Assembly (NCBI RefSeq): GCF_004010195.1
Contig: NC_057757.1
Location: 4,584,807-4,648,806 of the forward strand
Direction: 5' to 3'
DNA: 64,000 nt
Source of the DNA: Chiloscyllium plagiosum
Lineage: Eukaryota
A model generated the notes under the pieces. It was not told the DNA's origin. It was given only the letters and a program-made list of their open reading frames with translations, and ran no database searches. Shown piece by piece: positions 9,621-36,980 of this stretch (position 1 is the stretch's first letter; every line of letters begins with the position of its first letter). The translations under genes were made by a program, and so were the position numbers.

Positions 9621-9969
9621 GTTATGACATCCCACCCCATTACCTACTGTCACTCTCGCTATTCCCCTCACCCACTTATTGCACCACCACACCCCTTTAT
9701 CCATTATACATCCCTTCCCTCTCATCTTATGCCATTCACCCCCTCCCCATTATTTCTCATCCCTTCTCAAATTATCCCCACCCCTTCCCAATTATCCCAC
9801 TCACCCCATCCCCATTATGCCACACTCCGTGCCCTAGTATATCCCACACCCCTACCCCATTATCCCAATCACTCCTCTCCATTAACCCTTTACTCCTTCC
9901 ACATTGTTCCCCTCCCCCCCCCTTCCAGGTTGACTCTAATGTTGAGGGTGGGGGGTTAGAGCTGTGAGT

Positions 9970-10235
9970 TCTCTGTTTCTTCGTGGGGCGGGGGGAGGAG
10001 GAGGAGGCGGGGCTAAGACGGGACTCCCGCCCCTTCTGTCCCATTGGCTGTCCTCCGGGCATGCGGGAGCCTGGGATTGGGGAGGGCGCCTGTCAATCAC
10101 CGGCGGGAGGCGGGCTGGCGGGAAGGGCTCGAGGGGAAAGGGGGGCGGGGCGGAGCGGAGGCAGCTGCCAATCACAGCCCGCGGTGGGGACGGGGGAGAA
10201 TGGGCGGGCGAAGGGTGTTTTCCGGCGACAGTATT
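9970..10235 (+). promoter_or_regulatory. CpG-island, TATA-less promoter with GC boxes and CCAAT boxes
   Basis: Sharp CpG/GC enrichment; several GGGCGG/CCGCCC boxes (~9985, ~10026, ~10143, ~10202); CCAAT/ATTGG at ~10043, ~10076, ~10168; ETS-like TTCCGG at ~10220; directly upstream of a first exon. Confidence 0.85.
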
Positions 10236-10236
10236 C

Positions 10237-10371
10237 GATACATTGGAGCATACATTGTGTCTTCTGTCGGGATACACTGTAGCGCTCGGAGGATACATTG
10301 TATCTTCTGTCCGGATACACTGTAGCGGCGCGGCCGACACATTGTGGTCGCTCCGGGGGTTACATTGTAGT
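10237..10371. promoter_or_regulatory. Array of seven 13-bp G(A/T)TACA(T/C)TGT(A/G)(G/T)C-type pseudo-palindromes (DM-domain/DMRT-like sites)
   Basis: Motifs start at 10237, 10249, 10271, 10292 (GATACATTGTATC), 10314, 10336, 10359; the binding-site assignment is inference. Confidence 0.5.
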
Positions 10372-10636
10372 AGCGCCTAGGAGCGAGGAGGGGGTTTTCC
10401 GCTCCTCCTCCTGGGTCATATCGGCGGCAGCAGCAGTAGCCCCCCCACCTCGATGTCCGTTCGGCCCCCCCTCCTCCCCCACTCCAAAACATTAAGACAA
10501 CCCGAACCTGCGACCTTTCTCCCTCCCTCCTATCCCATCTCTCCTCTCCTCTCCTCTCCCTCCTTTCTAACCCATCTCCCTCTCCACCTCAGGGCTCTGC
10601 ACACTTGGGAAACTCCCCTCGACCGAGGCTGATAGC

Positions 10637-10659
10637 ATGGGGGACAAGTCTGGCACAAG
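10637..10659 (+). CDS. ARRB2: Beta-arrestin (beta-arrestin-2 type) first coding exon, MGDKSGT-R, phase-2 donor
   Basis: agcATGG Kozak; ATG GGG GAC AAG TCT GGC ACA AG|gtaggt; 23 coding nt and phase 2 as in vertebrate ARRB2 (human MGEKPGTR, teleost MGDKAGTR), whereas ARRB1 is one residue shorter (MGDKGTR). Only 8 codons are visible and exon 2 was not found in the window. Confidence 0.7.
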
Positions 10660-11884
10660 GTAGGTGCACTTTCACCTCTTGTTGAAATTGTGTGTGTGTG
10701 TGTGTCTTCTCCCACCTCTGCTGCAGGAGTGCATCTCCTTTACCTCACGCGTGGGGGCCAGCCCACATTTAAAGGAAGGTTGCACCCCCTACCCCCCCAC
10801 CCCCCAAAAGGCCTTCTGTTTGGGCTGTGAGTTTTCCTTTTGTTGCATATATCATCAGACCAAAGCAACAAGTATCCTTGTTTTTTATTATTATATTAAT
10901 CCATCTCTCAAGCAGGATTTAGAGGTGCTCAATTATCTGCCCTTGGTGTATACTGATGTTCTGCTATTTTTTAATTTACTATTGCACCACCATCTGTTCC
11001 CCCTCACCGCTTCCCTTGTTCTGCGCTTTGGTGCTGTTAGGCATGCCTGCTGCCCCCTCATTTCATTTATATATAAATGCTGTTGGTGGTCCAGTTCTCC
11101 CAATGATGCCTGATGGGCAGGTGGCTTGTTTTACCCAGTGCCTTCCTTTCTCCAGAGCTCCTGGAGTCTGCCTGACAAATCCAAGGTGTGGGGTTGAACA
11201 TGTGACATTCGGCTTCTGTGAACAGAACTTTGGGCTCCTTTGCATTTGTGTCTCCTTAAGGTGTACCTGCGTTTGATAGTTTGACCTCCTTCCACGTGGC
11301 TGTTTGTGGAATGAAGCTGTTTTGATAAGGATGTTCTGTCTATTGAATGCTGCTGGTTTTAAGAGCATCCATGTGTGTGAAATATATCGTCAGTATCGTT
11401 CTCTTTTGGCTAATTGTTGCTGTTGGACTTTGGCAATCCACTGCCCTCCTTCTCCCCCCCCCCATCCCAGTTTGGAGGAAGTATTCTAATTTGCAACTTT
11501 ATCACTCTTGTGCTGACTGATTTGCATTGTCTGCCGGTGAACCGATTTGGTTTTCAAACCTCATCTCGGCCTTGTTTCCAAACAAAAAAAATTCCAGGGC
11601 TAGTTCCCTAACCGACTCCTCAATCTCAACCAGCCCTACCCTCTGCTTGGGATCTCTCTGCCACTCAATTCTCACTCCCCAATCACCCATGATCTTAAGT
11701 GCCCTGCATTTGGTGGTTGACTAGGGCCTAGGACTCTGCAGTTGTCTCCCTAAACCTCTCCACCTTGCTACCTTCCTTTTTCTGCTTGACCTCTGTCCCA
11801 GTATCTGGTCAATGGACTGAGAACTCCTGATGTGTCCGTAAGACGTAGGCCATTCAGCCCATCGAGTTTGCTCTGTCATTCACG

Positions 11885-25545: not shown

Positions 25546-26359
25546 CATTCTTACCCTCTTCCTTCTCTTTCTCAGCTGTCGGCACCCCCCTCCCCTACCT
25601 CTCTTTCCCCTTCCCTCTTCCTACGTAAACCACCCCAGGCTGATTAAGTACAGAATAGGTTTCTGTCCAAATTAACCAGGACAACTTCTATTGCAAGTAA
25701 GTAAACTCCAACCATGGATGAAGAATTGTTAGCCTTTACCTTGACGAGTTAATACTTGGACCCGCTTATAGTTACGTGAAGCCTCCTGTTTCAAAAGTAG
25801 GGACACTCATTTTGTTATCAGGTCCCTTTGAGGGTATGATCACTGCACTGCGAGCTCCCTTCAATTATTTCTGATCAAAAGAGAGCCAGAGGCTTCTGGC
25901 TAATTATTGCCAGTCTGCCTAGAGGAGCAGGAGGGTGCGTGTGGGAGCTGTGCGCATGAGAGGCATAGGGTCTGACTGTACCATCACAAAGCCTGCAAGG
26001 CCCACAGTGACATCCTGCTGTGCTGCACCATTGTGTGGTTCAAGTCTCATGTTAGACCAAATAGGTTCTGAGATTCCAACCCTTTGAGTAGCCAGATATG
26101 GGCAACTGCTGGCAAATGGCACTCGATTAATTTAGGATATAGAGTCATGGAGCTGTACCGTGTGGAAACAGATCCTTCGATCCAACTCCTCCATGCCAAC
26201 CAGGTATCCCAACCTAGTCGAGTCCCACTTACCAGCACTTGGCCCACATTCCTCGAAACCCTTCCCATTCATATACCCCGAATGAGTTGGACTCAAAGGT
26301 CTGTTTCCATGTTGTACAAGTCTACAAGCTCCTCGAAGACCTGCCTTCACCTATGTTTT

Positions 26360-26651
26360 GATTAGATTGTTTAGATTACTTACAGTGTGAAAACGGGCCC
26401 TGCGGCTCAACAAGTCCACACCGACCCACCGAAGCGCACTCACCCAGACCCATTCCCCTACACCTAACACTACAGGCCCTAACCTGCACATTTTTGGACT
26501 GTGGGAGGAAACCTGAGCACCTGGAGGAAACGCACACAGACACGGGGAGAATGTGCAAACTCCGCACAGGTCAATCCCTGAGGTGGGAACTGAACCCGGG
26601 TCTCTGGCACTGTGAGGCAGCAGTGCTAACCACTGTGCCACCATGCCGCCC
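26360..26651 (-). mobile_element. HE1-type SINE, near full length
   Basis: ATCTA-type tail, core and head CCACTGTGCCACCATGCCGCCC. Confidence 0.9.
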
Positions 26652-27149
26652 ATGTGTCCAGTCCCCACTCGGAAAGTCAATTGCTGACTCTACTACCACC
26701 ACCCTTTAAGTAACTGTGCCAATGTGTTGTCCCGTGGGCACCAAACCCATAACAGCTATGTTATGTGCAGGCTAAGTTAGACCATGCTGTAATGGTTGTG
26801 TTCTCAGTGCTGAGAGGAGAGAGGGGAAGAGAGATGTTGATTTTTATTTGTGGGTGGGGGAGGTTATTAAAAGAATAATAGAATAACAAAGCTTACTTGT
26901 TGCATTGACTCTTAGTAACCTGTGACGTCTCTGGCTGCGGCTCGACACCAATGTGTGTGTGTTTTTAAAAAAAAAATTCTGTTCTCCATAAGCCAGAACA
27001 TTGAAGCAGGAGCCAAGTGTGTTCTATGAAGCCTTAGTTGATGCTGGACTGAGGCAGGGATCCCTGCACAGCACAGGAGCTGTCCAGATGGTCAACACAT
27101 GCTGGTGTTTAGCATTGAACCCATCGCGGTTTTTCTGTTCCACTTGTCC

Positions 27150-27600
27150 GAAAGATGAAGGCGGCACTTGGCACACTTGCTTTTATCGGTCAGAGCACTG
27201 AGTGTCAGAGTTGGGATGTCTTGTTGCAGCTGTGCAAGGTGTGGCTGAGGTCACATTTGGAATACTGCGTGCCTTTCTGGGTGCCCTACAATAGAAAGGA
27301 TATTATTAAACTGGAAAGGGTGCAGGAAATTTGGTACCTGGACTGGAAGATCCATGTTAAATGGAGAGGTTGGATACGCTGGGACTCTTTCTCCTGGAGC
27401 TTAGGAGACTGAGGGGTGACCTTTATAGAGGTCAATAAAATCACGAGTGACGTAGAAAAGGTTAGATAGCCAGCAGCTTCCCTCCCCCAGTTAGGGGAGT
27501 GTAAAACTACAGGGCATGGGTTTGAGGGGAGAGATACAAAAAGGTCCAGAGGGGCAATTGTTTTCGTGCAGAGGCTGGTCAGCGTCTGCCAGAGGTAATG
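27150..27600 (+). mobile_element. CR1-like LINE fragment
   Basis: KAALGTLAFIGQSTECQSWDVLLQL..SHLEYCVPFW. Confidence 0.85.
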
Positions 27601-28777
27601 GATTCATGGTCACCATTAGACCATAGTTCCAGGTATGTTTTGTCGAATTCAAATTCCACCATCTGCCATGGCAGGATTCAGACCCGGGTCCCTAGAACCT
27701 TAATCAAGTTTCTAGATTAACAGTTGAGGGATGATACCACTAGGCCATTGCCTCGTCTTGCCTGCAATTTGAACTAATTGATCTGTGACTTGATGGGGTC
27801 ATGTGTTCATTACTACTACTTTTTGAAAATTCTCCCTTTTGTCTTCATCTCCCCTCCCTCTCATCCTCTTCGTTCCTCTGGGCTCAGCTTGTCACCCTCC
27901 TGATCTCCAATGCCCTGGTGGGGTTTGAACTCTGCTGTCTAGCTTGAGAGGAGGAGCGATTCCATCGCCTGGAGACGAGGGAGTCTGTGGACTACTCTGC
28001 CACAGAAAACAGTCGAGGGCAAAAACGTTGAATGTTTTCCAGCGTCGAGTATAGCTCTCTGGGCTAAGGGTGATCAAAGGGTACGGGGAGAAAGTAGCGG
28101 CGGTGCACGGAGTTGGATGAACAGCTGTGATCATATTGGAATGGCAGGGCTAGGCTCAAAGGACTGAACGGCCTACTCCCATTCCTATTTTGTACCAGCT
28201 GTCTTGCCTTCTGCATTGCAAGACTTGCCACCTAGGCTATTGTCTTCAGGTGTGTTAGACTACGATGTGCTGTGGGCTGAATTGACCGTTGTTTCTCAGC
28301 GACCGTGATGGAACTTGTGGACTATTTCAACTGCAGAGGTTTCACAACCCGCGTCAGAGTGAGTGTTCACCCCATTTTGACAGGGATCATTGGTTAGCAA
28401 GCAGGAATCTGTCCCCGTACTTTATACAGTGGACTTTCAACACCGTCACTGACAGTCTGAGAGTTTTGAAAATAAATAGATGCATTTGGGGAAGTGGGAA
28501 ACACCGAATGTGGTGTGTATTTTCCATGAGGAGGCTGTTTTATCCGATGTTCATCTTAACATAAGAAACTGCAGGTGGATATTGGGCATTGAAGAATCCA
28601 GAGTTTTATTGCAACTAAGTATGATGTACAGACATTACGTTCGTCAGGCATGAAAGTGTCTGGGCTAACATTAAGCTGTTGGATTGCAGCAGAACAGCAT
28701 CTGACTGGCAGAGTGTCATGCTTCAAGTGATCTGAGGTATGATGGAGTCTGACATCTTTACACCCTCCTCTTATGTC

Positions 28778-29240
28778 AGGCCCAACCCGTCCAAGCCGAC
28801 CAGATATCCCAACCCAATCTAGTCCCACCTGCCAGTACCCAGCCCATATCCCTCCAAACCCTTCCTATTCATATACCCATCCAAATGCCTCTTAAATGTT
28901 GTAATTGTACCAGCCTCCTCCACTTCCTATGGCAGCTCATTCTATACACGTACCACCCTCTGTGTGAAAAAGTTGCCCTGTAGGTCTCTTTTATATCTTT
29001 CCCCTCTCACCCTAAACATATGCCCTCTAGTTCTGGACTCCCTGACCCCAGAGAACTTTGCCTATTTACACTATGCCCCTCATAATCTTGTAAACCTCTA
29101 AGGTCACCCCTTGGTGCTCCAGAGAAAACAGCTCCAGCCTGTTCAGCCTCTCCTTGTAGCTCAAATCCTCCAACCCTGGCAGCATCCTTGTGAATCTTTT
29201 CTGAACCCTTTCGAGTTTCACAACATCCTTCCGATAAGAA
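28778..29240 (-). mobile_element. HER1-like LINE 3' fragment
   Basis: Reverse complement of LINE tail and RT C-terminus. Confidence 0.88.
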
Positions 29241-29264
29241 GTGTTGTACTAATTAATGCAGATT

Positions 29265-29435
29265 GATGTGGAGCTGTCGGTGTTGCACTGGAGTGGGCAA
29301 AATTGCATGACACCAGTGTTATAATCCAACGGACTTATTTGAAATCACAAGCTTTTGGAGCGCTGCTCCTTCAGGTGGAGACTTCACCTGATGACAGAGC
29401 AGCGCTCTGAACGCTTGTAGTTTCAAATAAACCTA
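29265..29435. mobile_element. Penelope-like fold-back fragment
   Basis: Inverted arms TTATTTGAAATCACAAGC..GAGCGCTGCTC / GAGCAGCGCTC..GCTTGTAGTTTCAAATAA; CTGATGA core followed by GAAC instead of GAAA. Confidence 0.7.
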
Positions 29436-29769
29436 ACACTGTTTGACAGTGAATAACACCAGATTCTAGGCTCCATTTCCTGCTTATCCCTTCTTGAATT
29501 CACTGCAGTCCTCGTGGTGCTGGTGGTAAGAAGCCCACTCCACCTTTTTCAGGAAGCTCCTTATAAAACCAAGCTCACTCGTCAGATGCGGAGAGCACTT
29601 AGAGAACTCAGTTGCACCCCACTGGCAACTGTTTCTGCTGAGTTTCTCCACTGTTCTGTTTTCAGATTTCCAGCATCTGCAGTCCCTTGGTTACGAATGT
29701 CCCATTCTCGAGTCTGTGTGTAAGCTGACACGTCGGAACACAGTACGGTGTAAAATAGTCTTTCGTCGG

Positions 29770-30197
29770 TAAGCATTCACGTGTTTTAAATTTAACATGG
29801 ACATGCCCTTGGGTGGGATGTATGTGAGCTGGGCATTCATAAGCTGGGGACTGCCTGCATTTTACCTCTTTTGACTGATCACTGGCTCTGTGGGGGCCTT
29901 GGACGGTGCTATGCAAATGCACGTTGTAGCTGCCAACTGCAAAGGGCCACTGCGGGGAGCGCAGGGGTGAGGTAACGCACCAGGCGCGGCATTGGCCAGG
30001 AGGATGTCGCTTGTATCTGCGACTGAGATCTTGCGCGTTTTCCTGTCGCCCGGGCAGACCCGTTCACCTCCCGCTTGCTGCTCTGAGCAGAGAACAGGGT
30101 GTGTTTTGGAGAGGGGTACAGTGAGAGGGTGAGCCACCCTGTTAGCTGGATGGTTTAACACCCGACGCTGGCAGTGTAGCAGAGGACAGAGAGGAAC
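29770..30197 (+). promoter_or_regulatory. Candidate internal (alternative) promoter and 5' UTR
   Basis: Unique CpG-enriched stretch in repeat-rich surroundings; E-box CACGTG 29778, octamer ATGCAAAT 29911-29918, inverted CCAAT 29991-29995. Confidence 0.55.
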
Positions 30198-30262
30198 ATG
30201 GCAGAAACACTGGGCAGCAACCCTGCACAAACCAAAGGGGCCACACAAACGCGACACAGGAA
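30198..30262 (+). CDS. Candidate alternative first coding exon of the beta-arrestin gene: MAETLGSNPAQTKGATQTRHR-K
   Basis: aacATGG Kozak; 65 nt open (21 codons + AA); consensus GTAAGT donor; phase 2, the same as exon 1 at 10659. Confidence 0.5.
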
Positions 30263-30286
30263 GTAAGTTGTTTTTACTTTTTGTTT

Positions 30287-30290
<4 letters not shown>

Positions 30291-30335
<45 letters not shown>
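30291..30335. repeat. (TC)n microsatellite
   Basis: ~22 TC units. Confidence 0.95.
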
Positions 30336-30340
<5 letters not shown>

Positions 30341-31009
30341 TCAGTTTATACCAGCCAGCAAGCAGTCAAACTTTTCATGCCCTATAATACCAGAGGCCGA
30401 GCTAACACACTTAATTCATCTTAGGCGGATCCTTTGCAAGCTTACAGCACAGGAGGGGGGCATTCGGCCCAATGTACTGCTGCTAGCCTTCTGTAGGAGC
30501 GACCCAATTTGCCCCACTCCCATTCCCAGTCTGTCTCTGTCTCTCTCTTTCTTTCTTTTCCTGCAGCTCTACAAATTTCCTCTCCTGCAGATAATTCTCT
30601 AGTTCCCCTTTTTGCTTTTCTTCTTCCTCCCTCCACCTCCCACCCCTCTCGAAACCACAAGCGTATCTGTCTCTACTCCTTGGGCAGCTTGTTCTGGATC
30701 CCATTTCAGAGTGTGTTTTTATTCTTCCCTTTTTTTTTAAAGATTACCAACAATTTTTCCTCATCTTTGTTTTTTTTTTATTTTGGAGCATTTCCCTTGC
30801 AAATAATATCCCCCATCTCTTTTTTCCTTCCACCAACTGGGACAGTTCTCTCCTGCTTTACTCAGGTGCTGGGTAGTTATGCTGAAAGTCTCCATTGTAT
30901 CTTTTCTTGAACCCAGCTTCTCCATGTCCTTATTACCAGGGAATGTTTTTCTGCACGCTCCCTTAAGCCGCCTCACCCCTGAAGTAACGGAGGTAGTGTT
31001 GCTGTTTCT

Positions 31010-31316
31010 TCGAATCCCTTCAGTGTGGAAACAGGCCCTTCGGCGCAACAAGTCCACACTGACTCATTCCCCTACCCTATCACACTGCATTTACCCATGA
31101 CTAATGCACCTAACCTTCCCATCCCTGTACACTATGGCCAATTCACCGAATCTGCACATCTTTGGACTGTGGGAGGAAACCGAAGCACCCGGAGGAAACC
31201 CACACAGACATGGGGAGAATGTGCAAACTCCACACAGACAGTTGCCCGAGGCAGGAATCGAACCCGGGTCCCTGGCGCTGTGAGGCAGCAGTGCTAATCA
31301 CTGAGCCACTGTGCCA
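31010..31316 (-). mobile_element. HE1-type SINE
   Basis: Core and head on - strand. Confidence 0.9.
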
Positions 31317-31787
31317 TGGACAATGTTTCCATTGTCTGGCCTGACTTTTTTTTGTGAAGTTCAGGTGAGCTGGAGATAAGCATATGAGGGTCTGAAAGAG
31401 ATGCTTGCTCTTTCTCCGTGCGACCCTTTGTCACAACGGATGCTGTCTTGATCTCCACGTCCCTCCAATTTCAGCCTCCCAGGGCACCCCTGGCTTCCAT
31501 TCTTGACATCCTGTCTTCTGGAATGCCCCAAGTTCTGGAATTACCTCTGGGAGGACTTCCTTCAGCCGGAAGCTGGTAAATCTGTGAAACTCATTGCCAC
31601 AGAGGGCTGCGAAGGCCAAGATGATGAGCATCTTTGAGACGGGGAGAGGTTTTTTTTGATTATTGAGGGGATTAAAGTGGAGAATGGGGTTAGAGAAACA
31701 CATCAGCTGTGATCAAATGGCAGAGTAGATGTGATGGGCCGAATGGTCTGATATGTTATAGTCTCCTTGGAAAAAGCTTGCCTGAAT

Positions 31788-32225
31788 TAGAATCCCTACA
31801 GTGTGGAAACAGGTCCTTCGGGCCCGACCAGTCCACACTGACCCTCTGAAGGGTAACCCACATAGACCCATTTCCCTACCCTGTATTCACTCCTGACTAT
31901 TGCACATCCCTGAACACTCTGGGCAATTTAGCATGGCCTGTTCACCCTAACGTAGACATCCCTGAGCACTCTGGGTAATTTAGCATGGCCCGTTCACCCT
32001 AACCTACACATCCCTGAGCACTCTGGTTAATTTAGCATGGCCCGTTCACCCTAACCTACACATCCCTGAGCACTCTGGGTAATTTAGCATGGACTGTGGG
32101 AGGAAGCCCACACAGACACTGGGAGAACAGGCAAACTCCACACAGGCGCGCAAGGGTGGAATCGAACCCCAGTCCCTGGCACTGAGAGGCAGCAGCACTA
32201 ACCCACTGAGCCACCATCCCGCCCA
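31788..32225 (-). mobile_element. HE1-type SINE with internal tandem expansion
   Basis: About 4 copies of CATCCCTGAGCACTCTGGGTAATTTAGCATGGCCCGTTCACCCTAACCTACA inside the SINE. Confidence 0.88.
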
Positions 32226-32544
32226 TGAGCCCTAACACCATAGTGGCTCGTGTTTGATAAAACTCTATGAAGTGACTTGGAATTGTTTCTGCGACATTAA
32301 ATGTACCTCATGTATAAACCAGGAGCATGATAAGGCCATTTGGCCCGTTGAGCCTGCTCCTGCCATTCAGAATCATTGTGGCTGATCACTTTGCGACTTC
32401 AAACTCTCACACCCGCCTACTCCAATAACGTTTGCTGCCTCGTTTAACAGGATTCCATCTACCTGTGTTTTTTTTTTAAAACTACAGTAATTCAAAGAGT
32501 CAGCTTCCATTGCCATTTCAGAGTTCCAGATTTTACAAAATTCA

Positions 32545-33050
32545 TTTCGTGGGATGTGGGCATCGCTAGCTGGGCCCAGCATTTATTGCCGGTGGGAGTG
32601 AACTGCCGACTTGAACTGCTGCAGTTCACCTACTGTAGGTTGACACAACACTGTGCCCTTAGAGAGGGAATTCCAGGATTCTGATCAAGCGACACTGAAG
32701 GAACGGCAAATGTATTTCCAAGTCAGGGTGGCGAGGGGCTCGGAGGGGAGCTTGCAGGGGCTGGTGTTCCCATGTATCTGCTGCTGTGGTCCTTCTAGAT
32801 GGAAGTGGTTGTGCTTTTGGAAGGTGCTGCCTGAGGATCTTTGGTGAATTTCTGCTGCGCGTCTTGTGGACAGTCTGTGCTGTTGCTGCTGCTGAGCGTC
32901 AGTGGGAGAGGGAGTGGATGTGGTGCCAATCAAGCGGGGGCTGCTTTGTGGATGGTATCGAGCTTCTTGAATGTTATTGGAGCTACCCCCATCTGGAGCA
33001 AGTGGGGGGTATTCTCTCTCACTCCTGAATTGTGCCTTGTGGATGGCACT
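32545..33050 (-). mobile_element. CR1/L2-superclade LINE 3' fragment
   Basis: Same family as 19135-19645, reverse orientation. Confidence 0.75.
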
Positions 33051-33430
33051 TTCTCTCCCAGTGATAGAGAGAGAAACTGGCCTCTCTCTTTTTTTTTTAA
33101 ATTGGTAACCTTGACCTTAAAACAATGACCCCTGGCTCACCCTTCTCTTGTGAAGGGTAGCACTGACACCCCCCTGTATGTACCCCCTTCAGGCCACTCG
33201 TTGGTTTTGCATGCACATGTCCAAATTGCCCTTTACACAAGGCGAGACGGTGGTTGTTTTTCCAAACGGAAGAAACTGTACTCGGAAGTTTGTTAACGTG
33301 CTTAGATCTGTGTACATGTATTAGTGTGGTCCAGTGGTAGTGTCCCTATCCCTGGGCCAGAAGGTCCGAGATCAAGTCCCACCCTCTCGGGAGGTACACC
33401 GAATTTGATCTATGACTGTCACATGTACAC

Positions 33431-33520
33431 AATCACCTGATGAAGGAGCGTCGCTCCGAAAGCTAGTTGCTTCCAATTAAACCTGTTGGACTATAACCTG
33501 GTGTTGTGTGATTTTAAACA
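33431..33520 (+). mobile_element. Penelope-like fragment with intact minimal hammerhead core
   Basis: CTGATGA-A-GGAGCG T CGCTCC-GAAAGCTA at 33437-33465, then CTTCCAATTAAACCTGTTGGACTATAACCTGGTGTTGTG; ACATGTAC on both sides. Confidence 0.75.
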
Positions 33521-33529
33521 TGTACGAGA

Positions 33530-33860
33530 TGCAGTGAAATGTATTGTTTTGCGTGCTAACCAGACAGATTATGCCTTGCATAAATACTTCAGGGTAATGG
33601 AACAGAAGGCAGGATATAGTGTTACAGTTGCAAGAGAAGGTGAAAGTTCAACTCTAATATAAGAGGCTTGTTTATGAGTCTGGTCACAGCAGGGAAGAAG
33701 CTGCCCTTGAATCTGTTGGTACGTCTTTTTAAACTTCTGTACCTTCTGCCCGATGGAACAGAGTGAAGAACGTACAACCCGGGGTGGGAGGGGTCTTTGA
33801 TTATATTGGCTGCCTTCCTGAGGCAGCGGGAAATCGAGACAGAATGTATGGAGTTCTTGA
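33530..33860 (-). mobile_element. Rex1/Babar-like LINE 3' end
   Basis: SRCLRKAANIIKDPSHPG...PSGRRYRSLKRRTNRFKGSFFPAVTRLIN. Confidence 0.85.
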
Positions 33861-34221
33861 ATCTTGGCTGTTGGCTTGTCCCCCTCCTCCCACTTCCATG
33901 CAATAGATGCTCCCTTTGTTTTCATCCAAAGCTATTCCCAGGTGTCAGTCCCTGCTGTTATACCACCAAGTCCCCCTACCCTGAGCTGTGTAGGCAACTT
34001 GCTAATGCTAGTCCCGTCTTGTAGTGTGTTTGGTGCCTGTCTTAATCTGAAATAACTGATCTGGACTCGCAGGTTTTGGAGAACCTCCACTGGGCTATCA
34101 TCTTGCTTACGCTTGTAATCTTTTTATTATCTCCAACTCCCTTTAATCCCCCCCCCCTCCCAAAACCTACCTCCTATCACCTCCAATGTCTCTCCTTCGT
34201 CCAACATCTCAATGGCCAGAC

Positions 34222-34590
34222 NNNNNNNNNNNNNNNNNNNNNNNNNNNNNNNNNNNNNNNNNNNNNNNNNNNNNNNNNNNNNNNNNNNNNNNNNNNNNNN
34301 NNNNNNNNNNNNNNNNNNNNNNNNNNNNNNNNNNNNNNNNNNNNNNNNNNNNNNNNNNNNNNNNNNNNNNNNNNNNNNNNNNNNNNNNNNNNNNNNNNNN
34401 NNNNNNNNNNNNNNNNNNNNNNNNNNNNNNNNNNNNNNNNNNNNNNNNNNNNNNNNNNNNNNNNNNNNNNNNNNNNNNNNNNNNNNNNNNNNNNNNNNNN
34501 NNNNNNNNNNNNNNNNNNNNNNNNNNNNNNNNNNNNNNNNNNNNNNNNNNNNNNNNNNNNNNNNNNNNNNNNNNNNNNNNNNNNNNNNNN
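34222..34590. other. assembly gap (369 N)
   Basis: Run of N. Confidence 1.
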
Positions 34591-34889
34591 AGCTCACCCC
34601 CTTGCCCTCGCCCCAAATTATGCGGTTTATTTTTATTGATTGAACCACGGAGTCCCTGCTGTGATGATGTTTGCCGCAACAAAAAACACCCAAGGCTTCC
34701 AGGGCTTATCTCTGGCTTGGAAAATTAGACGTGGCCATCTCCTGTTGATTTGAAACAAAAGTCTTAGCTTATCTGATACTGTGCCTGCACGTGATGTCCC
34801 AGTGTTTTTGTAGAAACCTAGAAAATAGGAGCAGGAAGGGGCCGTTCGGCCCTTCACATCTGAGCCAGCGATCAATATGATTGTGGTTT

Positions 34890-35120
34890 TAGATTACTCG
34901 GAGTGGAAACAGGCTGTTCGGCCCAACAAGTCCACACCGACCCTCTGAAGAGCAACCCACCCAGACTCATTCCCCTACATTTGCCCCTTCACCTAACACT
35001 ATGGACAATTTAGCATGGCAATTCACCTAACCTGCACACTTTTGGATTGTGGGAGGAAACTGGAGCACCCGGAGGAAACCTACGCAGACACGGGGAGAAT
35101 GTGCAAACTCCACACAGATC
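34890..35120 (-). mobile_element. HE1-type SINE, 5' truncated
   Basis: Tail and core. Confidence 0.85.
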
Positions 35121-35967
35121 GTCCAACTCTGTCCCCCATTCCTGCTTTCACCCCTTTTAGCTTTAAGATCCATGTCTCATTCATTCTCAAAAACAGTCAA
35201 TATTCTGGCCTCTGCATACATGCTCACAAAAAACAGACGTTCCTGGAAAGGCTACGCAGGTCTCTTATCAGTGTTAACATTTCACATCAAGTGACTCTTC
35301 CTCAGAGCTGACAGTGGCCAGGAAAATATCTGTTTATCTACAGAAGGCCGAGTAGGGGGGCAGTGTTGGGGAGGGAGTAAACGATAGGTGGGAATAGAGG
35401 CCAAAGAAGGAGAAGAACAGTTGGACAGACAAAGGACTGGCCTCAAACACTTTCTGTGGCCGAGAATTCCCCAGGCTCCCCACTCTCTGGGTGAAGACAT
35501 TTCTCATCCTCTCTATCCTATCATGTCTCTCCTTAGACTGTGACCCCCCCCTCCTCGGTTCCTGTCGTCGGGAATATCCTTCCTGTGTTTACCCCATCTC
35601 GTCCTGTTTAGAACTTCGTAGGTGTCTATGACGTCTCCCTGCCCACCTCGTTCTTCTGGACTCCCAACGGATGTAATCCTAACCAAGGCAGTTTCTCATC
35701 CAGCATCATTCCTGTCTGGCTGCGCTCCCTCTCTGTGTTTTTATTGCTTTGGAAATGTGCTGTGACTGTGCCTCAGTCCAGAGGCACAATCTTTCCTCTC
35801 GGGGTCCACACCTCGACAACACAATGAGCTGAGTGTTTGCCCCGTCCTGTGCATCCTCATTCTTCCTGTTCCTCCGTTTCCGTACAATTCTTCGTTGGTG
35901 GGGGTATGAGCGTTTCCTAGTAGGAGATACGAGGCTGAGTCTTGCAGTTGGGAATTGGTAGGGTCGT

Positions 35968-36980
35968 GAAATCCTGACAGTGCAGGTAGAGGCCATATGC
36001 CTCGCTGAGTCTGCACTGACCCTCCAAAGAGTGTCCCACCCTAACCCAGCACTTCCCCTGTAACCCTGCATTTCCCATGGCTGACCCACCTAGCCTGCAC
36101 ATCCCTGGACACTTGGAGCAATTTAGCATGGCTAATCCACCCTAAGCTACTCATCTTTGGAGTGTGGGAGGAAACTGGAGCACCCAGAGGAAACCCACAC
36201 AGGCACTGGGAAGTCCTACAGCGTGGAGACAGGCCCTTCAGCCGAAACTGGCCCATGCTGACCAAAATGACCAATCATGCTAATCCCATTTCCCTGCACT
36301 TGGCCCATATCCTCCTTATCCTTTCCTATCCACATATTTGTCCAAATGCCCTTTAAATGTTGTTAATGTACCTGCCTCAATCACTCCTCAGCCAGCTCAT
36401 TCTGTATGCATACCACCCTCTGTATAAAAAGTTTCCCCTCGGGTTCTCTTTTATTCTTTCCCCTCTAACCTTAAACTGCTGCCCTCTGTTCCTTGATTCT
36501 CCAACCCTGGGGAAAAAGACTGAGTACATTAACCCACCATGCCTGTCATAATCTTAAACACCTCTATAAGATTCTATCTCCGTCTCCTACGCTCTTTTTA
36601 AAAAAAAGTCTCAGCTTGTCCAGCCTCTCCCTATAACTTGGACCATTGAGTCCTGGCAACAAGCTTGTAAATTTCTTCTGCATTCTTTCCAGTTTAATCA
36701 CATCCATTCTATAGCAAGGTGACCAAAACTGAACCTAATGCTCCCAAGTCTGGCCTCAACAACATCCTGTATAACTGCAACATAGCTCCTCAACTTAACG
36801 CCCTGACTGATGAAGGCCAGTGCCAAAAGCTGCCTTCACTGTCCTGTCTACCTGTGACCCCACTTTGAGAACCGTGAACCCGAACTACAAGATCCCTCCA
36901 CGTAAACAGTCGTCCGAGGGTGGAATCGAACCCAATTCCCCGGCGCTGTAAGGCCCCAGTGTGGACCACTGAGCTGCCCA
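35968..36980 (-). mobile_element. HE1 SINE (35968-36210 and 36895-36980) interrupted by a CR1-like LINE 3' fragment (36215-36895)
   Basis: SINE core stops at ~36210 and the head resumes at ~36900 (GGAATCGAACCC..ACCACTGAGC); LINE RT remnants lie between. Confidence 0.8.

Follow-up and report, generated by a model that had tools for sequence, protein, structure and literature searches.

The splice variants known for arrestins, as given in the available parts of PMC5501109 (Appendix 7) and PMC6251804, are the skipping of exon 13 in ARRB1 and of exon 4 in ARRB2, an exon-7 stop, the skipping of exon 15, and p44, all of which change the protein internally or at its C-terminus. As for the N-terminal end, the accessible text of three papers reports that residues 1–9 are not resolved in arrestin structures (PMC6251804), that Arg7 of beta-arrestin-1 contacts pSer362 of the V2R, a receptor phosphate (PMC7486103), that T16, the minimal JNK3 scaffold, starts at Val-Phe and activates JNK3 better than residues 1–25, and that ASK1 and MKK7 were pulled down only by the peptide that contained residues 1–8 (1–25; PMC9368909). 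Here we describe a conserved N-terminal isoform of shark beta-arrestin-2 in Chiloscyllium plagiosum. Like the described variants it is a case of alternative RNA processing in the same gene family, but it is the start of the protein that is exchanged. The isoform is real, and its source is likely an alternative first exon. Automatic annotation already contains it, and we found no description of it in the literature searched, which covered few subscription papers: the available part of the arrestin evolution survey PMC5501109 treats isoforms as internal or C-terminal and does not use the words "first exon", and the available part of PMC5795056 does not mention the isoform.

We analysed a stretch of 64,000 nucleotides (the window; G000:C48:4584807-4648806) that holds both the canonical and the alternative exon. 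Judged from its sequence matches, the gene is ARRB2 (beta-arrestin-2) rather than ARRB1. The top proteins among the matches listed for an internal-exon query were ARRB2 or "arrestin red cell", and the best six PDB sequences were beta-arrestin-2 chains; these alignments begin at query residue 22, which corresponds to residue 8 of the chains. Exons 1–8 lie on C48 (exons 3–8 in L006-L007), and the later exons match the unplaced contig C100447 at up to 94% identity (about 25,900–36,500, minus strand), which we infer to be linked to C48. With the 3' exons probably on C100447, the predicted protein of this gene (P0001) stops short at 231 aa, its end being read-through; the break beyond L007:997 is an assembly break and not evidence of a pseudogene. 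We also found three other arrestin loci in the genome, on C6, C15 and C13, and a genome search with the Pfam Arrestin_N domain gave 15 matches, none of them at the ARRB2 locus. On C13 two arrestin genes lie close together on opposite strands (G000:C13:11,602,000-11,657,000), a pair that fits the tandem duplication of SAG that the available part of PMC5501109 reports in cartilaginous fish.

The alternative exon lies in intron 1, which is 85,172 nt long, of which 80,658 are sequenced. The preliminary description had read it from the sequence as a strong Kozak ATG at 30198, followed by 65 open nucleotides and a GTAAGT donor in the same phase as that of exon 1. All of these were confirmed: the ATG has A at -3 and G at +4, the frame stays open to the AA that precedes GTAAGT at 30263 (phase 2), and exon 1, with its ATG at 10637, ends in AG at 10659 (Table 1). 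No other ATG in the sequenced part of intron 1 (80,658 bases) is open to a phase-2 GTAAGT, with or without a Kozak filter; the pattern of ATG plus donor alone is not decisive, because a looser donor, GT[AG]AG, gives 13 matches with a Kozak context and 52 in total. The exon region is single-copy as far as checked, with one match genome-wide for 29900–30270 and no repeat match over 29700–30900 in the 312 kb of sequence compared. The latter result led us to reject a transposon origin. Stops close all three frames of the 5' leader, so that 30198 is the only start for the reading frame. The short upstream ORF of the leader could damp translation of the alternative isoform.

Table 1. Positions of features of the ARRB2 gene, counted from the first base of the window.
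Feature	Position	Strand	Remarks
Main CpG-island promoter region of ARRB2	9950..10500	+	40 CpG in 10000-10500, o/e 0.80, GC 0.64; putative promoter role
Canonical exon 1, coding part	10637..10659	+	7 codons + AG, phase-2 donor at 10660; matches residues 1-8 of P0004
Likely second promoter, free of repeats and weakly enriched in CpG	29700..30200	+	promoter role suggested by RNA-like contig starting at 30078
Octamer motif	29911..29918	+	160 nt upstream of 5' end of RNA-like contig; candidate element
Inverted CCAAT, purine-purine-CCAAT-S context	29991..29995	-	85 nt upstream of 5' end of RNA-like contig
5' leader in RNA-like contig	30078..30197	+	120 nt or longer; a stop in each of the three frames
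Upstream ORF, Met-Val-stop (two codons)	30150..30158	+	same frame as main ATG; weak -3 context
Alternative exon, coding part	30198..30262	+	21 codons + AA, Lys completed by exon 2; 100% match to residues 1-22 of P0001
GTAAGT donor, phase 2	30263..30268	+	splices to exon 2, which lies beyond the window (L005:1832-1862 = G000:C48:4680638)

Four of the 17 runs listed were mapped onto 29560–30290. One contig of 330 nt (depth 31.5) from X1, a contig set whose status as RNA is a guess, matched 30078–30263 (186 nt) without mismatch, and its loose end continued with the following 30 nt of exon 2 (L005:1833-1862). Exon 2 is 31 nt long with G as first base (L005:1832-1862), and the intron from the new donor spans about 65,569 nt including gaps (~65.6 kb). 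The splice predicted from 30262 to the second arrestin exon is therefore crossed by this contig, and the split codon, which had been left as Lys or Asn, reads AA+G and encodes Lys. In one contig of one run the alternative exon is thus joined in frame to exon 2, and its junction, frame and start codon are established. A processed pseudogene is an unlikely source of the junction, given the one genomic match and the zero depth of X1 on the DNA flanking the exon. The exon was seen in one of the four runs mapped: X6 and X8 gave no depth on it, their coverage being limited to a repeat fragment (29634–29692), and X7 was uninformative; X6, X8 and X7 are not known to express ARRB2.

We then compared the leader with predicted proteins, using the 65-aa internal exon as query (1,104 matches, of which the best 120 were examined) and, in a second search, the 40-residue region of residues 1–40 (phmmer). 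P0001 (NCBI XP_043539570.1) starts with exactly this peptide (22/22 residues). No other model of this locus appeared among the matches listed; a canonical one could sit inside another cluster. Leaders of 22 residues ending in RK were also found in proteins of 423 aa from Rhincodon (whale shark; P0006, XP_048476124.1), Stegostoma (zebra shark; P0007, XP_059498598.1) and the stingray Hemitrygon (P0012, XP_072905014.1), beside canonical counterparts of 409 aa (P0003, P0004 and P0011). The four models are named "arrestin red cell" or "arrestin red cell-like" and join the leader to the same exon 2; they are automatic predictions, for which the literature searched yielded no functional study, and P0001 differs from the others by its cut at 231 aa. 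The leader was present in four of the six elasmobranch species among the matches listed, with Heptranchias and Mustelus represented by one entry each. Expectations about the protein held up as well: the leader counts 22 residues against 8, making the isoform 14 residues longer (423 against 409 aa in the three other species), and in sharks it carries 4–6 K/R beside strand I against 2. At the protein level, the start, the frame and the phase of the donor were preserved in these four of the six elasmobranch species listed, firmly in carpet sharks and probably in the ray.

Among carpet sharks the leaders share 14–15 of 22 residues, against 196/199 in the body of the protein. The middle of the leader drifts, and its length of 22 and its basic end (R/H-H/Y-R-K) are kept. 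The stingray leader shares 5–7 of 22 residues with the shark leaders, a weak link in sequence, and has the length and end of theirs; it is probably orthologous to them. The shuffle test against the sharks gave p 0.006–0.013 (uncorrected), and the phmmer search with residues 1–40 recovered it at E 1.7e-4, with four of 242 candidates passing and no canonical form among them; a profile of the three shark leaders missed it at E<=5. Other predicted N-termini of elasmobranch ARRB2 (P0008, P0167, P0009, P0005, P0013 and P0014) contain cassette exons particular to one species, placed between exon 2 and one or the other first exon (32 aa in the whale shark and 24 aa in the zebra shark). No clear match to them was found in this shark locus, and the leader of P0013 matches many repeat copies.

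Such N-termini bear on the idea that the exon is a neutral, low-level exonisation of intron sequence that related sharks have retained by chance, comparable to the repeat-derived N-termini of some predicted isoforms. The other predicted N-termini are lineage-specific or, as in P0013, repeat-like, and the high divergence of the leader would suit that origin. We regard it as very improbable, since the region shows no repeat origin, the contig runs unbroken across the junction at a depth of 31.5, and the alternative form is the only model of the locus among the matches listed. The same length and phase recur in four species, and the ray leader passed the shuffle test (p 0.006–0.013) as well as the phmmer search (E 1.7e-4), the latter being one that no canonical form passed.

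Upstream of the exon, the preliminary description had placed a unique CpG-enriched island. The enrichment was recovered, in a weak form, and the word unique overstates it, because four clusters of 500 bp and 21 of 200 bp in the window reach GC>=0.5 and o/e>=0.6, this region being one of each. The same values are the usual thresholds of a CpG island, and the region meets them over 29701–30200 (GC 0.55, o/e 0.66) and over 29900–30100 (0.61 and 0.81), while the o/e threshold fails (0.53) over the 501 bp of 29770..30270. The region is the second-richest 200-bp CpG patch of the window, behind the main promoter. Two more clusters pass at 500 bp (601–1350 and 27951–28450), and within the main CpG island, just 5' of canonical exon 1, lies a 43-nt tandem unit of 1.9 copies that are 92% alike (10245–10327).

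The octamer and the inverted CCAAT were both found where they had been placed (29911 and 29991). The octamer is expected 0.02–0.04 times per 500 bp and occurs five times in the window; no paper relevant to it (POU factors) was found in the literature searched. CCAAT is expected 1.2–1.4 times per 500 bp, i.e. at chance level, and has little weight alone, and its extended context, with 30 sites in the window, is likewise weak evidence alone. The usual spacing of CCAAT from the transcription start is -60 to -100, and the RNA-like contig starts 85 nt past this one. Matches to general consensus patterns, taken without a chance test, included a minus-strand ETS-like core (30040–30047) and E-boxes at 29778, 29914 and 29934; no GATA, TATA or GC box was found in the candidate promoter with such patterns.

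The contig itself begins at 30078 without foreign 5' letters, 8–11 nt upstream of two acceptor-like AGs and not at either of them. A pyrimidine-rich acceptor-like AG at 30056, 22 nt upstream of this start, leaves room for an upstream non-coding exon. The alternative exon could then be internal and entered through that AG, with the CpG content, the octamer and the CCAAT being incidental, which would accord with the weakness of the CpG island and with the fact that a contig's start need not be a transcription start. We consider this improbable, as the CpG enrichment at 200 bp is second only to that of the main promoter and the CCAAT spacing, by the usual distance, fits a start near 30078. Furthermore, exon 1 joined to the leader would hit a stop, all the leader frames being closed, and the order exon 1 followed by the alternative exon occurred in none of the protein models compared.

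The reading that we favour as likely is that the alternative exon is a first exon driven by a promoter of its own, which would serve mainly to set where or when ARRB2 is expressed, the arrestin core remaining unchanged. Transcription would start near 30078, ribosomes would pass the two-codon upstream ORF or re-initiate after it, and the splice from 30262 to exon 2 swaps the 8-residue head for the 22-residue one. Compared with canonical ARRB2 (arrestin-3, 409 aa), the whole body from strand I on is shared, residues 1–8 are replaced by 22 others, and the residue at the junction of exons 1 and 2 changes from Arg to Lys. The fast change of the leader relative to the body suggests that the second promoter is the likely point and that the new head would be a disordered, mostly passive tail with its basic end kept. 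The junction Lys stands at the position of Arg7 of beta-arrestin-1, and two or three basic residues are added before strand I, so that the isoform would keep its phosphate binding, with fine adjustment at most. The JNK3 scaffold is common to both forms, since T16 starts at the Val-Phe of exon 2. AlphaFold2 models reached a mean pLDDT of 43.9 (alignment A2, P0007) and 44.4 (A3, P0023), too poor to bear on the leaders.

It is also conceivable, though rather unlikely, that the protein swap itself matters, with the longer basic head strengthening the binding of receptor phosphates or anionic lipids, altering the binding of ASK1 and MKK7, or adding a patch resembling a nuclear-import signal. All four species with the leader preserve its length of 22 and its RK end, and the Lys is kept despite requiring a non-consensus AA at the donor. 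The pull-down in the accessible text of PMC9368909, in which ASK1 and MKK7 were bound only by the peptide including residues 1–8, points in the same direction, and bony vertebrates too keep an alternative N-terminus of ARRB2. On the other hand, the middle of the leader is strongly divergent, in the ray leader the K/R are matched by an equal number of acidic residues (4 each), and the minimal JNK3 scaffold, again in the accessible text of PMC9368909, lies outside the swapped part.

The N-terminus of bony vertebrates was found in predicted models: of 166 proteins anchored by exon 3, 18 begin with another N-terminus, which stands in for both exon 1 and exon 2 (P0022, P0023, P0124, P0170, P0168, P0066, P0135, P0138, P0026, P0039, P0054, P0139-P0142, P0145, P0149 and P0150). 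They belong to 10 frog species, 3 teleosts, the reedfish (3 entries), a sturgeon and a gar (partial). This N-terminus has 27–39 residues before exon 3, with its own V-F/Y-K/R-K, and in the predicted models strand I is exchanged together with the first half of the JNK3 scaffold. A leader profile trained on 14 sequences recovered the sturgeon (E 2e-9) and the gar (E 2.8e-7), both untrained. By eye, the acidic-hydrophobic middle of the leader resembles the arrestin C-tail strand.

The N-terminus of frogs and ray-finned fish is in the same gene and likewise replaces exon 1, but it joins exon 3 and replaces exon 2, whereas the shark exon joins exon 2. Homology between elasmobranch and bony leaders was rejected as not significant (shuffle p at least 0.07 for P0001, P0007 and P0012 against all 8 bony leaders compared), and by its joining to exon 2 and by this leader likeness (p at least 0.07) the shark exon falls outside the bony-vertebrate class. 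We found no copy of the bony leader in the window and L002-L007, where the best match (E 0.73) was a fragment without an upstream frame and intron 2 has a gap of 2,730 bases. The replacement of strand I in bony vertebrates may be a more surprising lead than the shark exon. A broader proposal, which we hold to be unlikely, is that a second beta-arrestin-2, made through a promoter switch, is maintained across jawed vertebrates, and that its N-terminus rewires the end that senses phosphates and scaffolds JNK. Elasmobranchs would add a basic head of 22 residues ahead of strand I, and frogs and ray-finned fish would put a conserved alternative in place of strand I itself. If true, this would amount to an overlooked tissue-specific biasing of arrestin signalling, absent from the mammalian proteins compared.

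Alternative first exons are common, and the isoform is already in the automatic models, which together set a modest ceiling on the importance of the finding. For annotation, the listed model of the locus uses the alternative exon instead of canonical exon 1. Finally, the first 25 residues of beta-arrestin-2 carry receptor-phosphate contacts and the JNK3 scaffold, and a natural N-terminal swap offers a ready test of what the N-terminal tail, which is not resolved in structures, does.
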